A stretch of 64,000 bases of DNA from a virus: the IMG/VR virus record IMGVR_UViG_3300028829_006673. One strand, written 5' to 3'. Position numbers and translations under genes: made by a program. Shown one piece after another: positions 4,152-21,770 of this stretch; the stretch's first letter is position 1; each line of letters starts with the position of its first letter. The notes under the pieces are model-generated. The model was given only the letters and a program-made list of their open reading frames with translations. It was not told the origin of the DNA and made no database searches.

Positions 4152-4169
4152 AGGTCAAAAATTGTGAAT

Positions 4170-4177
4170 GATAAATA
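4170..4177 (+). promoter_or_regulatory. Late promoter box (GATAAATA) for portal operon
   Basis: nATAAATA between the terminator and the gp20 SD (CAGGAG). Confidence 0.7.
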
Positions 4178-4217
4178 TTGATACCAATATTTCTAATTTA
4201 TTCAGGAGTTTATATTC

Positions 4218-5951
4218 ATGGCTACATTATTTGGATGGAAGTTTGAAGAACAGAAAGACCGTGAAGAAACGAATCTTCAGGCGTTTAGCCCACCTGACTT
4301 TGATGATGGCTCTGCCGTTGTAGGCGCAGCCGGTGTATATGGTACCTATCTAAATTTAGACAATACCTTTACAAACGAATTTGATCTGATGGCTCGTTAT
4401 CGTGCGATGTCAATGCAACCTGAATGTGAGTTAGCAATTGATGAGATTGTTAACGAATCGATTACATCTGGAAGAAAATCATATCCCGTATCCATTGAAC
4501 TTGACTATCTTGAAGACTATTCGGAGATGCTCAAGGAAAAGATTGGTGATGCTTTCTATGAACTAATGGATAAACTGAATTTCAAATACATGGGTTATGA
4601 AATTTTTCGCAAGTGGTTTATTGATGGACGATTATTCTATCAAACATTGATTGATGTCAAGAATCCTCAAAAGGGTATTCTTGAATTGCGACCGATTGAC
4701 CCATTCAAAATCAAGAAAATTCGAGAGAGAAAGAAGACAGAGGAAGAGTCTGCACGCATTGGAATGGATGAAATCAAAATCAATCAGCAATATAATGAAT
4801 ACTATCTATATTCTGAAACTGGTGTTTTTAATCTTGAAACAGAAGGAGATCGAAAGAATGTTCTGAAGATTTCACCCGATTCAATTGTCTATGTGAACAG
4901 CGGTCTGTTGGATGAAAGACGCAAAAATGTAGTTTCATATCTACACAAAGCGTTTCGTCCAATGAACCAAATACGAATGCTGGAAGATGCGGCAATCATT
5001 TATCGATTAAGCCGTGCGCCATCACGAAGAGTGTTCTATGTGGATGTTGGTAACTTGCCAAAAGCAAAAGCCGAACAGTACATGCACTCACTGATGAGCC
5101 AGTATCGTAACAAGATGGTCTATGATAGCAAAACAGGTCAGTTAAGAGATGACCGTAAGTTTCAAGCAATGCTTGAAGACTATTGGATGCCCCGGAGAAA
5201 TGGCTCGGCAACCACAGAGATTGACACAATTCAAGGAAGTGAGGCGAACTTCACTCAGCTGGATGAACTTGAATTCTTTCAGCGACAACTCTTTCGTTCA
5301 CTGAATGTGCCCATCTCAAGAATGCAACCTGAAGCTGGTTTCTCATTAGGACGAGCAAGTGAAATCTCAAGAGAAGAATATAAGTTCATGAGATTCATTG
5401 AAAGATTAAGAACACGATTTTCAAATTTCTTTTTAGAGGTTTTAAAACGACAGCTAATTCTCAAGAACATTGTTTCAATGAAACAGTGGGAAGAAATAGC
5501 TGATTCAATTCATTTTACATTTGACCAAGACAGTAACTTCAATGCTCTGAAAAACCTTGAACTTCTCACTGAAAAGATGAATGTGTTGCGAGATGCGGAA
5601 GAGTATCGTGGAAGATACTTCTCTGCTAACTATATTCGTAAGAACATTCTATCTCTTAGTGATGAAGATATCGATAGAATTGATGAAGAGATTGAAGAAG
5701 AAAAATATGATCCACGATTCGCACCTAAAGAAGGTGACGCTGGCTTCGGTATGGGCAGCATGGGCGGAATGGGAGGCGGTCTCGGTGGTGGCCTCAGAGG
5801 TGACCTCGGTGGTGGATTACCCACAAGTTTTGATGATGGCATCGGAGGAGAACCAAGTGAACCAAGTGGTTCAGGTATGGTAAATGACCTCGGTGGTGGA
5901 AGTGGTGGAGGTCTTGGCGGAACAACAACACCTGGCACAGGAGAATTATAA
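4218..5951 (+). CDS. gp20: Portal vertex protein with Gly-rich C-terminal tail
   Basis: MATLFG start; PECELAIDEIVNE, WFIDGRLFY, SYLHKAFRPMNQIRMLEDAAIIYRLSRAPSRRVFYVDVGNLPKAKAEQY, MLEDYWMPRR motifs. Confidence 0.98.
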   Translation: MATLFGWKFEEQKDREETNLQAFSPPDFDDGSAVVGAAGVYGTYLNLDNTFTNEFDLMARYRAMSMQPECELAIDEIVNESITSGRKSYPVSIELDYLEDYSEMLKEKIGDAFYELMDKLNFKYMGYEIFRKWFIDGRLFYQTLIDVKNPQKGILELRPIDPFKIKKIRERKKTEEESARIGMDEIKINQQYNEYYLYSETGVFNLETEGDRKNVLKISPDSIVYVNSGLLDERRKNVVSYLHKAFRPMNQIRMLEDAAIIYRLSRAPSRRVFYVDVGNLPKAKAEQYMHSLMSQYRNKMVYDSKTGQLRDDRKFQAMLEDYWMPRRNGSATTEIDTIQGSEANFTQLDELEFFQRQLFRSLNVPISRMQPEAGFSLGRASEISREEYKFMRFIERLRTRFSNFFLEVLKRQLILKNIVSMKQWEEIADSIHFTFDQDSNFNALKNLELLTEKMNVLRDAEEYRGRYFSANYIRKNILSLSDEDIDRIDEEIEEEKYDPRFAPKEGDAGFGMGSMGGMGGGLGGGLRGDLGGGLPTSFDDGIGGEPSEPSGSGMVNDLGGGSGGGLGGTTTPGTGEL

Positions 5952-13477: not shown

Positions 13478-14980
13478 ATGATTCTTAACGAGCAAGTTCA
13501 AGCAAAGTGGAAACCGATTCTTGAACATGAAGAATTACCTCAAATCGACGACAACTATAAGAAAAGCGTAACCGCTATTCTCTTGGAGAACCAAGAAAAA
13601 ATGATGCGAGAGCAAGCAATTCAGCAACAAGGTTCTGGATTGTTCTTGAGCGAGAATCCAAATGGTGGACCGATGGGTTCTAGTATGGATACATCCAACT
13701 TTGCTTCAGGAGTTGGAGATGGTTTACAGGCTACAGTGCCTTACAACGGACACACCTTTGGTGCTGCACCTGATGCTTCCGGTGCTGTTCAGTGGGTTGA
13801 CCCTGTATTGATTTCTCTTGTAAGACGAACCATGCCTAAATTGTTGGCATATGATGTTTGTGGTGTTCAGCCAATGACATCTCCTGTTGGTTTGATCTTT
13901 GCAATGCGTTCACAATACGGATCACCTGGTGTTGTTCCTGGTACAGGAATGGATGGATTTGATGATACACTATTGGGAACAAACGAAGCCTTCTTCGGTG
14001 AAGCAAACACTGCTTACACAGGAACAGGAACTCATGCTGACCTGAAAAATCCTACACAAGTCAATGCGCTTACAGGAACAGATGATCCAGTAGAAGTATT
14101 TTTTAATGGGAATATGAATCATGGTAAAGGAATGCCAACCAGCTGGGGTGAGAACATGGGACGACCTAACGGACCAGAATTCCCAGAAATGTCATTCAGT
14201 ATTGAGAAGATGTCTGTATCAGCCGTAACACGTAAGTTGCGTGGTCAGTATACTCTTGAGATGGCTCAAGACCTGAAAGCAACTCACGGATTGAATGCTG
14301 AAAGCGAACTCGCAAACATTCTCTCAAATGAGATTCTTGCTGAAGTAAACCGCCAAGTAATTCGCACCATCTACACTGTAGCAAAGCCTGGTGCCCAGAA
14401 CACAACTACCGCTCATGAATTTGACCTTTTGGTTGATTCAAACGGACGATGGTCAGTTGAGAAGTTCAAAGGTTTGATGTTCCAATTGGAAGTAGAAGCA
14501 AACCAAATTGCACGACAAACACGACGTGGAAAAGGAAATGTCATTCTTTGTTCCGCTGATGTTGCTTCCGCACTTCAGATGGCAGGAATGCTTGACTACT
14601 CCTCAAACATGAGAGTGTCTTTGAAGACTGACGAAACTGACAACTTGTTTGCCGGTATTCTGAATGGTCAATTCAAAGTATACATCGATCCTTATCTGCC
14701 TGTCAATGCTAAGAAAGCTATGGTATGTGTTGGATACAAAGGAACATCTCCTTATGATGCCGGTGTATTCTACTGCCCATATCAGCCGCTACAAATGCTG
14801 AAGGCACAAGATCCACGAACCTTCACTCCAATCATTGGATTCATGAGCCGAGATGCAATGGTAGCTAATCCATTCTCTCAAGTGGATCGAAATGGTTATC
14901 CAGTGCGTATCCCAGATGACGGAATTACTCCTAATCTGAACGTATACTATCGCAAGATGAAGGTTGTTAACTTGACCTGA
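13478..14980 (+). CDS. gp23: Major capsid protein
   Basis: KWKPILEH, TAILLENQE, PVLISLVRRTMPKLLAYDVCGVQPMTSP, EMSFSIEK, YTLEMAQDLKATHGL, GRWSVEKFKGL, YDAGVFYCPY motifs; predicted gp21 cleavage at LSE59. Confidence 0.99.
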   Translation: MILNEQVQAKWKPILEHEELPQIDDNYKKSVTAILLENQEKMMREQAIQQQGSGLFLSENPNGGPMGSSMDTSNFASGVGDGLQATVPYNGHTFGAAPDASGAVQWVDPVLISLVRRTMPKLLAYDVCGVQPMTSPVGLIFAMRSQYGSPGVVPGTGMDGFDDTLLGTNEAFFGEANTAYTGTGTHADLKNPTQVNALTGTDDPVEVFFNGNMNHGKGMPTSWGENMGRPNGPEFPEMSFSIEKMSVSAVTRKLRGQYTLEMAQDLKATHGLNAESELANILSNEILAEVNRQVIRTIYTVAKPGAQNTTTAHEFDLLVDSNGRWSVEKFKGLMFQLEVEANQIARQTRRGKGNVILCSADVASALQMAGMLDYSSNMRVSLKTDETDNLFAGILNGQFKVYIDPYLPVNAKKAMVCVGYKGTSPYDAGVFYCPYQPLQMLKAQDPRTFTPIIGFMSRDAMVANPFSQVDRNGYPVRIPDDGITPNLNVYYRKMKVVNLT

Positions 14981-15054: not shown

Positions 15055-15555
15055 TTAATCTTCAATGAAAAAAAACTCACCTGTCCATTCTTCATCAATT
15101 ATACGAGGAGCAGTTTTTGATTGACGTGCTTGTAGAATCAAATCATTTGATTCTTTTGCGAAGTGACCATCCGCCCATGAAATTGTAACATGAGCAGGTC
15201 CTGGTTTTTGATTGGGTCCTGAATCTCTCTTTTGTAATATCTCACCATTTTCAAAGACCATTTCTGAAACTAAAAATGCTTGAATAAAATAATTCTGATA
15301 AAGTTTATTCATTTTCACTTTAACTTTTTGCCCTATATATCTTTTATATGATTCAGCAACTTTCATTTCAGGCTTGTAAGTGATTGTGATATGATAGAGA
15401 GGTTTGCCTTTTTCGTTTGTTGGATATTTTTTGAAATGAGCATATCTTTCAAAAAGTCTTTTGGATATTTGTGTTGAAGCAACAACAGCAAAATACCCAT
15501 TCACTCTCTGTTCTTCATTAAGTAAAGTATTGATATCTGAGATTAGCTTATACAT
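15055..15555 (-). CDS. 2H phosphoesterase (2',3'-cyclic phosphodiesterase / Acb1-like fold) with capsid-targeting-like leader
   Basis: Two HxT motifs (YHITI, AHVTI) about 65 aa apart; the HVTISWADGHFAKESNDLI pattern resembles tRNA-ligase CPD-type 2H enzymes; N-terminus MYKLISDINTLLNEE. Confidence 0.75.
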   Translation of the reverse strand: MYKLISDINTLLNEEQRVNGYFAVVASTQISKRLFERYAHFKKYPTNEKGKPLYHITITYKPEMKVAESYKRYIGQKVKVKMNKLYQNYFIQAFLVSEMVFENGEILQKRDSGPNQKPGPAHVTISWADGHFAKESNDLILQARQSKTAPRIIDEEWTGEFFFIED

Positions 15556-20193: not shown

Positions 20194-20379
20194 ATGAAAT
20201 ACTTTGAAACCTCAATGCAATTAGCAAAAAGTTTGATTCACAACATGCCAAAGGATCAGTTTGAAACTGAATTTGATGGCGATCCTGTTGAAGTTCTTCA
20301 GTATTGTGTCTTTGGAGTTGAGCCTAAAACAGAAGACACTCCAAAGTTAGAGTATAAAGATATAAAATATATTGAGTGA
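20194..20379 (+). CDS. Hypothetical protein (61 aa)
   Basis: Fills the gap between the RNA ligase promoter and a convergent ORF; preceded by TATAAATA; SD weak. Confidence 0.5.
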   Translation: MKYFETSMQLAKSLIHNMPKDQFETEFDGDPVEVLQYCVFGVEPKTEDTPKLEYKDIKYIE

Positions 20380-20784
20380 TTATTCTCGGTGTTCGTGAAA
20401 CCAACCGAGTGCGGCAAAGTCGGCTCTGATTTCATTCGAAACATAACCTTCTGAGATTGGTGTGGGAACACCATCAACTAGAACTGTTTCTTCTCCGATA
20501 TAACAATAGAAGTTCATATAGTCTTCTCCCTTTCCTCGTAAGTCAGCTACAACTCCACCAGCTTCACGAAAAGAAAAGGTCACTTCTTTTCCATCCTTTT
20601 TCCAAACATTATTACATAATGCCAAATAAAAATAATCGGCATATTTTTGCTCCTCAAGTTTGTTTGAAATCTTGACTGAATTGTACATATCAACCATAAA
20701 GTTTCTTTTAGCACCTGCTCTCAAAGAACCTTCATAGTCTGAAACATCCATTCCTGAACCCATGGGTCCACCGTTTGACGACAT
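20380..20784 (-). CDS. Conserved phage hypothetical with N-terminal peptide matching the mature gp23 N-terminus
   Basis: SD AGGAG, 8 nt downstream of gp13. Core motif FYLALCNN.W...SFREAGGVVADLRG.GEDYMNFYC...EG.V..EI.ADF..LGW. N-terminus NGGPMGSGMDVSDY. Confidence 0.8.
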   Translation of the reverse strand: MSSNGGPMGSGMDVSDYEGSLRAGAKRNFMVDMYNSVKISNKLEEQKYADYFYLALCNNVWKKDGKEVTFSFREAGGVVADLRGKGEDYMNFYCYIGEETVLVDGVPTPISEGYVSNEIRADFAALGWFHEHRE

Positions 20785-20792
20785 AATATCTC

Positions 20793-21728
20793 CTAACCTA
20801 TGACGAACGATAGCGGCTCGTAATAAAAATTTTGAAGTTCTTCTCTCATTTTATCCATCTCAGCTTGTGCTTCTTGTTTCATGACATCACCATTGAGTTG
20901 AACACCACCAGGAAGCGCAAGTGTCCCAAATTTTGAAATATTTTGTCCAAACTGATATTTGACCTTCTGGAGAAAAAATTCCTTCAACCAGCGATCCGAG
21001 TAAATTCCCTTAGCCTCCTCCGGGTCAAGTAATTTGTGGCACTCTAAGATCACAAAGTCACCTTCTCTCATATCAGGACGACCAGTTGTATTTCCTGTAA
21101 GTTCTGATTCGAATTGAATGTTGAAATTCTCTTGGTCAGTTGGATTATCATTTTCATTCAACACTTCACCATCTGGTGTTTCTGTGAGAATGTTTGATTC
21201 TGTATATTCTTTCGGACCCCAATTACAATCTATAAATAGTTTATTACTATAACGTTTATATCTTATATCATGTTTTGTATTTAAAAGCAAGTCAATTGTA
21301 GTAGCATATTGGCGAAACATTACATAGCTGGTCAAATCAATCGGCGCAAATCCCCCGTTGCCGAAGCCACCAGAACTCATCATTTGATAAAAGATATCAA
21401 ATGGTAATTGAGAAAATGAATCATCCAAGCGGCCCATGAACAAATAAGATGCTGGTATTAGTTTTGTAATTCCAATAATGCGACTACCATCAATTGGTAT
21501 CCATTGATTATAAATATCCTCTGCAGTAATTTGATAACGCAGGTAGGTTCTCTCATTTGCTTCTAAATTAAATTCTTGAAAAAGTTCAAGTGAGTCATCA
21601 AGACGGTCTTCTAGTTGTTCCTCAGTCACATTGATTTGAACAACAGGTGAACCAAGTGCTCGAAGAGCCCAGTGTATTAAATCTTCTCTAGATTGAATCA
21701 TGAGGTTTCTTATTCTAAATGTTTGCAA
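20793..21728 (-). CDS. gp13: Neck protein (head-tail adaptor)
   Basis: SREDLIHWALRALGSPVVQINVTEEQLEDRLDDSL and WLKEF...KYQFGQNISKF...LPGGVQLNG motifs; ATG at 21700 may be the true start. Confidence 0.9.
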   Translation of the reverse strand: MQTFRIRNLMIQSREDLIHWALRALGSPVVQINVTEEQLEDRLDDSLELFQEFNLEANERTYLRYQITAEDIYNQWIPIDGSRIIGITKLIPASYLFMGRLDDSFSQLPFDIFYQMMSSGGFGNGGFAPIDLTSYVMFRQYATTIDLLLNTKHDIRYKRYSNKLFIDCNWGPKEYTESNILTETPDGEVLNENDNPTDQENFNIQFESELTGNTTGRPDMREGDFVILECHKLLDPEEAKGIYSDRWLKEFFLQKVKYQFGQNISKFGTLALPGGVQLNGDVMKQEAQAEMDKMREELQNFYYEPLSFVIG

Positions 21729-21742
21729 TCATTTGTTTTCTA

Positions 21743-21770
21743 TATTTATACTAAATTTGTTTCATAAATA
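21743..21770. promoter_or_regulatory. Back-to-back late promoters (TATAAATA on - at 21743-21750; CATAAATA on + at 21763-21770)
   Basis: Both boxes lie in the 90-nt divergent gap between gp13 and the VrlC-like gene. Confidence 0.75.

Follow-up and report, generated by a model that had tools for sequence, protein, structure and literature searches.

A small late protein encoded by an uncultured marine T4-like phage begins with a copy of the free N terminus of the mature major capsid protein, gp23*. The extension that carries the copy is translated from its first Met codon and is under purifying selection, and comparison with sister lineages indicates that it is a recent addition to the small gene, copied from gp23. 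By analogy with the T4 capsid, we tentatively propose that it serves as a docking tag for the gp23 lattice. The window, by which we mean the whole 64-kb stretch of DNA that was analyzed, represents the structural module of the phage, with genes for terminase, sheath, tube, portal, prohead protease (S77), scaffold, and gp23; an inverted block that ends in gp13 follows gp23 and precedes the giant fibre genes. The features under discussion are collected in Table 1.

Table 1. Positions of the capsid gene, the small late gene P0001, and their signals in the window
Feature	Position	Strand	Basis or remark
gp23 major capsid protein precursor (P0002)	13478..14980	+	PF07068, E = 8e-127
L57-S58-E59, putative prohead protease (gp21) maturation site	13646..13654	+	T4 cleavage rule (PMC9546572, PMC9026906)
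First 23 residues of mature gp23*, putative start of the N-fist equivalent and template of the copy	13655..13723	+	
Small late gene P0001, 134 aa	20380..20784	-	26-residue capsid-like extension plus orphan domain of ~108 residues
N-terminal extension, codons 1 to 26	20707..20784	-	Not in sister-clade orthologues
Core copy of the mature gp23 N terminus, codons 1 to 16 (NGGPMGSGMDVSD)	20737..20784	-	
Shine-Dalgarno sequence AGGAG	20790..20794	-	ATG 5 nt downstream; overlaps the gp13 stop codon TAG (20793-20795)
gp13-like neck / head-tail adaptor gene	20793..21728	-	phrog_211, E = 2e-30; PF26809 in relatives
T4-type late promoter box TATAAATA	21743..21750	-	Upstream of gp13

The N terminus of P0001 matches that of mature gp23

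P0001 starts with MSSNGGPMGSGMDVSDY, and gp23, directly after L57-S58-E59 (13655-13702), reads NPNGGPMGSSMDTSNF. An earlier note on this DNA, made from the sequence, had counted 10 identical residues in 14 (NGGPMGS, MD, and S) and two conservative changes (N/D and F/Y), and our alignment gives the same figures; the four synonymous codon differences that it listed at identical residues (AAT/AAC, CCG/CCC, TCT/TCA, and TCC/TCA) are likewise present. Weaker similarity runs to about residue 24 (BLASTP, 11/21 identical, E = 4e-5). In both P0001 and mature gp23*, the shared segment stands at the free N terminus.

Both segments are rich in Gly and Ser, and the match could in principle be a chance resemblance of two low-complexity N termini; shuffling of the whole small protein still attained the observed score of 61 in 2 of 5,000 trials. 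We regard this explanation as already effectively refuted. Composition-preserving shuffles of the 25-residue peptide failed to reach that score against gp23 residues 60 to 104 in any of 20,000 trials. When the N termini of ORFs from 91 related loci were each compared with the gp23 N-region of their own locus, the P0001-gp23 pair ranked first among 2,118 comparisons (score 61), followed by its relative (45) and a background of at most 44. With the 64-kb window translated in all six frames, a degenerate 7-residue motif occurred at the P0001 and gp23 sites only, and the similarity is kept in a second lineage. We also considered whether P0001 is itself a gp23 or HK97-fold capsid protein and rejected this assignment: only residues 4 to 24 are gp23-like, PF07068 does not match, and the predicted structure is a small alpha/beta domain.

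We infer the position of the gp23 maturation site and the N-fist equivalence of the copied segment; the L-x-E sequence is kept in 34 of 34 full-length gp23 relatives, a count from which one N-truncated fragment was left out. The closest cultured gp23 proteins, those of Methylophilales phage Melnitz and of cyanomyoviruses, are only ~50% identical. The gp23 proteins of the wider clade conserve the motif P[ML]GSG[MI]D, 0 to 13 residues from the cleavage site and at a distance from the N-arm that varies too, and such variable spacing would be expected of a tethered docking element. This combination of strong conservation and variable spacing is at least as compatible with a function in the mature shell as with a scaffold-facing one. 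Mimicry of a gp21 exosite or S'-subsite was rejected as unlikely, given that the motif lies at a variable distance (0 to 13 residues) from the scissile bond and is absent from every other protease substrate in the window. A phmmer search of the 64-kb window for a second gp23-like (gp24 vertex) ORF found gp23 alone at E ≤ 10; either gp24 is encoded elsewhere, or the vertices are made from gp23.

Expression and selection of the extension

P0001 lies 8 nt past gp13 in the same orientation. The earlier note had placed it behind a co-oriented gp13 gene and its late promoter, and this arrangement is confirmed; the same late box, TATAAATA, also precedes gp22 and gp23. Late co-transcription of P0001 with gp13 is supported at the level of sequence. 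There is no in-frame start earlier than Met1, and Met1 of every homologue is preceded by an AGGAG- or GGAGG-type site. A downstream start at Met8, which would leave the peptide unmade, is not upheld: Met1 has a strong ribosome-binding site, and codons 2 to 7, which lie upstream of Met8, show 3 to 4 synonymous and 0 nonsynonymous differences between lineages whose synonymous sites are nearly saturated. Because these codons change only synonymously and a ribosome-binding site precedes Met1, we conclude that the peptide is made.

For the whole extension, the window and L006 differ with a pS of 0.83 and a pN of 0.084; between lineages, pS ranges from 0.83 to 0.96 and pN from 0.08 to 0.12, with synonymous sites near saturation and values comparable to those of the body. 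From the codon differences, the earlier note had argued for selection on the peptide rather than a fresh DNA duplication, and its argument gains support from these values, as purifying selection has kept the peptide in all seven close homologues.

The gp13 ORF was called from a TTG at 21728 (311 aa), while its relatives have at most 304 aa, and its true start may be the ATG at codon 10 (MIQSRED...; window 21701-21728). On the other side, a conserved 61-aa gene (MKYFETS start; 20194-20379, plus strand) converges with P0001 and ends exactly at its end; it is present in all relatives, but in L024 it and the small gene share a strand, so it has been inverted in one lineage. Homing-endonuclease-like genes adjoin the small gene in two sister lineages (L106, 3433-4278; L024, 9152-9649), one of them between gp13 and the small gene with a faint NUMOD3 match and the other GIY-YIG-like by eye, which suggests that the gp13/small-gene junction is an insertion hot spot.

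The extension is confined to one subclade

In this marine T4-like clade the orphan-domain gene is a fixed late neighbour of gp13. The extension is found in one subclade only, in seven protein clusters that are 80 to 90% identical. Orthologues positioned after gp13 and before an Rnl1-like ligase gene occur in at least six other lineages (L011/L012/L014/L033/L034, L024, L035/L039, L036, L038, and L106); they begin approximately where residue 27 of P0001 aligns and lack the capsid-like peptide, although their gp23 keeps P[ML]GSG[MI]D just past L-x-E. It follows that the small gene received its copy from gp23, within a single subclade. As the sister-clade orthologues manage without the peptide, the putative tag would be dispensable for the function of the body.

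Coupling of the peptide to gp23

The earlier note had raised the possibility that homologues carry N termini matching their own gp23, and this was borne out in part: all close homologues (80 to 90% identical) carry the peptide and, in a second lineage, the leader before the core tracks gp23, but the peptide is missing from the distant orthologues of at least six lineages, and the core does not co-vary. The core of the small protein, PMGSG[MI]D, is the gp23 consensus of the clade; it is 13/14 identical to gp23 of P0172 or P0163, for example. For the window peptide, the score is 64 with the gp23 of a relative and 61 with its own. Three substitutions are common to both proteins: G/A before P, M/I before D, and the aromatic residue after S-[ND].

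The second lineage is represented by L001, L003, L004, L018, and L019, a phage ~89% identical to the window across an 11-kb syntenic region. Here gp23* begins NDLLYGAGSTNGG-PMGSGMD and the small protein begins MLKDTLLGGQG-PMGSGMD, so that a D-LL-G leader precedes the core in both proteins, with different Leu codons (CTG versus TTA). Between the window and this group, gp23 similarity (94%) breaks exactly at the cleavage site and resumes past the N-fist region. The bodies of the small genes of the window and L001 differ with a pS of 0.12, whereas their N-peptides differ with a pS of 0.50 and a pN of 0.30. Two types of N terminus (A and B), which differ between the window and L001 and of which B has the leader KDTLLGGQ in the small protein and NDLLY.GST in gp23, occur with the body types in all four combinations; N-peptide type is thus incongruent with body phylogeny, and the peptide has been exchanged as a cassette. 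Among the ~10 divergent patches in the 11 kb compared, however, three are more divergent than the N-peptide. Viral and metagenome contigs were scanned for pairs, with ten contig look-ups; both genes lie on one contig in the window and in the L001 group only (n = 2 pairs), and the A2 (L006, L009, L020, and L022) and B2 (L007 and L008) contigs are too short or end before gp23 and are unpaired. Because only two lineages carry both genes on one contig, the co-variation rests on one event.

The same comparison with L001 revealed two hypervariable patches in gp23, at 13632-13803 and 13909-14172. The first is the N-fist region, beginning exactly at the maturation site, and the second aligns with the region of the T4 insertion domain. 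Since the flanking DNA is 94 to 96% identical, these patches suggest that cassettes were exchanged or that parts at the surface are under diversifying selection. Third in divergence (15319-15555; minimum 43% identity in 60-nt windows) is the 5' part of a minus-strand 166-aa gene beside gp23.

The body of P0001 is an orphan domain

A phmmer search of the full library with P0001 matched 418 cluster representatives at E ≤ 1e-3, 19 of them at E ≤ 1e-10, and all 418 align only to residues ~27 to 130. The domain (residues ~27 to 134) follows the pattern YA..LY.ALCN ... SWR.AGG.VA.LR ... Y.DFYCSG ... EG.V..E...DL..LGW, in which Y53, C57, N58, R73, Y89, Y93, E112, and G113 are nearly invariant. It is mostly a stand-alone protein of 95 to 130 aa and sometimes the C-terminal part of a longer one; a distant metagenomic member, P0039 (586 aa), has two copies followed by an FGE-sulfatase (formylglycine-generating-enzyme-like) domain. 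P0001 has no match in Pfam (E ≤ 0.1) or PHROG (E ≤ 0.01), and 20 family members, searched 10 each against Pfam and PHROG, yielded no domain other than the FGE-sulfatase fused in one distant member. Among INPHARED cultured phages, tblastn with P0001 and two family members found no real homologue, the one weak match being to a Bradyrhizobium phage (E = 9e-3).

AlphaFold2, given an alignment of 111 sequences, produced a model of P0001 with a pLDDT of 89 and a pTM of 0.80, in which residues 1 to 13 are disordered, a helix starts at residue 14, and the rest forms a small alpha/beta domain. Disordered residues ahead of a well-folded body are, in this model, as expected of a flexible tag. No convincing known fold emerged from the PDB, VIA-wide, AFDB clusters, ESM Atlas, or BFVD searches: Foldseek gave no match at E ≤ 0.001 in PDB or BFVD, the best VIA structure match reached a Z score of 5.1 (2kvc, DUF3349), the AFDB cluster matches were unnamed members of the orphan family, a profile search of PDB sequences returned noise only, and the ESM Atlas feature search gave no usable match. 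No cluster name was informative.

The gene expected after gp13 is that for the T4-type neck protein gp14, which has 256 aa in T4. P0001 was rejected as a gp14 equivalent: it has 134 aa and no Pfam or PHROG match, and its family is found outside structural modules too. In viral contig L010, two orphan-domain paralogues (4152-4520 and 5445-5813) lie in an early-like region that also encodes a DNA ligase and, in tandem, small proteins that end in ...LRWL or ...KWL, so the domain is not limited to structural modules.

A candidate capsid-docking tag

The proposal of a docking tag draws on the T4 capsid. In the unexpanded T4 head, gp23 residues 66 to 105 are disordered and internal; upon expansion this segment moves to the outer surface as the N-arm and a 25-residue N-fist (66 to 91), which binds four subunits, two in its own capsomer and two in the next; in the five D subunits that face the portal, the N-fist is undocked (disordered) (PMC9958956, PMC9546572, PMC7136217). 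The N-fists also form part of the Soc site (PMC9958956). Like the T4 N-fist, the segment copied here starts right after L-x-E, upstream of a conserved N-arm (VDPVLISLVRR in this phage), and is flexible and Gly-rich (PMC7136217, PMC9958956). Unlike in T4, the segment occurs here also on a separate, non-capsid protein, and this region of the phage is longer and cannot be aligned with T4 beyond a GG pair, so the equivalence is positional.

One subclade gained a 26-residue extension that copies the free N terminus of mature gp23* onto an orphan-domain protein. According to this proposal, the extension would be a tethered ligand for the acceptor pocket used by the gp23 N-fist and would hold the small protein on the expanded capsid wherever acceptor sites are unoccupied, such as at the portal surroundings or vertices. 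The fixed adjacency of P0001 to gp13 makes portal-side sites an attractive location; that acceptor sites are free around the portal is our own suggestion, not reported for T4, and is attractive but unproven.

Several observations argue for docking. The similarity is far beyond chance and stands at the N terminus of both mature proteins; the extension is translated and under purifying selection; the gp23 motif is conserved at variable spacing; both proteins have the same substitution spectrum and, in the L001 group, the same leader in different codons; the peptide has been exchanged as a cassette, incongruently with the body phylogeny; expression is late, with gp13; the T4 N-fist becomes external on expansion and binds four subunits (PMC9958956, PMC9546572, PMC7136217); and the AlphaFold2 model places a disordered segment before a folded body. 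Against it, the peptide is missing from sister clades whose gp23 has the motif; the co-variation is one event and does not extend to the core; the N-peptide ranks fourth in divergence among the patches in 11 kb; the acceptor sites are placed by extrapolation from T4, to whose gp23 that of this phage is only distantly related; and a competing ligand for the N-fist pockets might disturb the lattice. A complex prediction with two copies of gp23 residues 105 to 500 and P0001, run without controls, scored 0.00 and is neither support nor counterevidence. On balance, docking is the best of the readings considered, and the simplest one for a free N-terminal copy on a flexible stalk, but it is tentative.

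Alternative explanations

The late timing of P0001 would also suit a protein destined for the prohead interior, in which the peptide would mimic the part of uncleaved gp23 that faces the scaffold core, and P0001 would be co-assembled inside, retained, and ejected with the DNA into the next host, much as proteins that bear a capsid targeting sequence (CTS). In the unexpanded T4 head, the N-terminal region of gp23 is inside and probably touches the core (PMC9546572), and T4 loads unrelated proteins via short N-terminal CTSs (PMC9026906); the presence of the orphan-domain family in nonstructural early-like neighbourhoods (L010) would suit an effector. However, the extension has no conserved L/I-x-E (DYE in the window; DYK, DYQ, or EHQ in homologues), the motif is present in no other core or scaffold protein of the window, and a conserved gp23 motif with variable spacing suits the mature shell at least equally. 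We consider prohead targeting unlikely. An assembly or expansion modulator, which would compete for N-fist pockets or bind unassembled gp23 without staying in the virion, and so adjust when expansion occurs or block association off the pathway, draws on the same evidence of mimicry and selection as docking, and N-terminal gp23 mutations alter head length in T4 (PMC9546572). Yet such a competitor is missing from sister clades whose gp23 carries the same motif, and we rate this role as improbable. Only slightly better are the prospects of a reused relic, a gp23 fragment that was fused by illegitimate recombination, perhaps supplying a start codon, and is now kept for a noncapsid reason such as stability or translation. 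Core nucleotide identity of ~20/23 nt around GGTGGACC-ATGGGTTC fits DNA duplication, and the extension is restricted to one subclade, but the core still equals the gp23 consensus while synonymous sites neared saturation, its substitution spectrum is that of gp23, and a second lineage has a matching leader in different codons.

The earlier note had also proposed a decoy for capsid-sensing defences, here taken as a ligand that would compete for a host sensor of the exposed gp23* N terminus. Such defences exist: Lit is triggered by the Gol peptide of T4 gp23, and CapRel senses the capsid. Like Gol and the capsid segment sensed by CapRel, the copied segment is a short stretch of the major capsid protein as the functional unit. 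Between near-identical phages, no patch is more divergent than the gp23 N-fist region, which fits the target of an arms race, and the peptide on the small protein is likewise a divergent cassette. However, the simpler effect of a copied trigger would be to activate the sensor, and the surface hypervariability can be explained otherwise. The Lit/Gol analogy is moreover positionally wrong. Gol spans approximately residues 93 to 122 of T4 gp23, a conserved segment further C-terminal than the mature N terminus; the copy covers gp23 residues 60 to 82 and thus lies N-terminal to the Gol-equivalent conserved block, which begins near residue 105. No defence component is present here, and we know of no defence or sensor for these uncultured hosts. 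A decoy is accordingly the least credible of these functional roles, and we think it very unlikely. Taken as a whole, the interpretation offered in the earlier note is partly supported.

Relation to known capsid-associated peptides

Among known systems, the T4 CTSs of IPI-III and Alt resemble the extension in that a short N-terminal peptide on unrelated late proteins decides head association (PMC9026906). They differ in that a CTS is not gp23-like, associates with the core, and is cut off by gp21 after L/I-x-E, whereas the P0001 extension copies the mature capsid terminus and has no conserved cleavage site. P0001 was therefore rejected as a CTS-bearing internal protein; position 18, where the cleavable Glu would stand, is E, K, or Q among homologues. 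T4 Soc and Hoc are small late proteins too, and bind only the expanded shell, but do so via folded domains rather than a copy of a capsid arm, and P0001 has no Soc- or Hoc-like profile match in Pfam or PHROG and none among the fold-search matches listed. In encapsulins, cargo-loading peptides are short terminal peptides that tether cargo, on a flexible linker, to a pocket of the HK97-fold shell. Unlike the extension of P0001, they are usually C-terminal, bind in the lumen, and have not arisen from an arm of the shell protein itself.

Loading of proteins into or onto capsids by terminal peptides is known from T4 CTSs and encapsulin cargo, and to our knowledge there is no precedent for an accessory protein whose N terminus copies that of the mature capsid protein, is maintained by selection, and is kept in step with it. 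If docking is true, the P0001 tag would join the terminal capsid-targeting peptides, novel in copying the capsid arm; duplication of ~70 nt of the capsid gene would be a simple route to recruit any protein to an HK97-fold shell, and the extension would be a natural display tag for T4-like capsids. If the peptide is instead a decoy, the matched cassette exchanges in gp23 and the small protein would record an arms race at an epitope. The extension also provides a first handle on a large orphan family with 418 cluster representatives.
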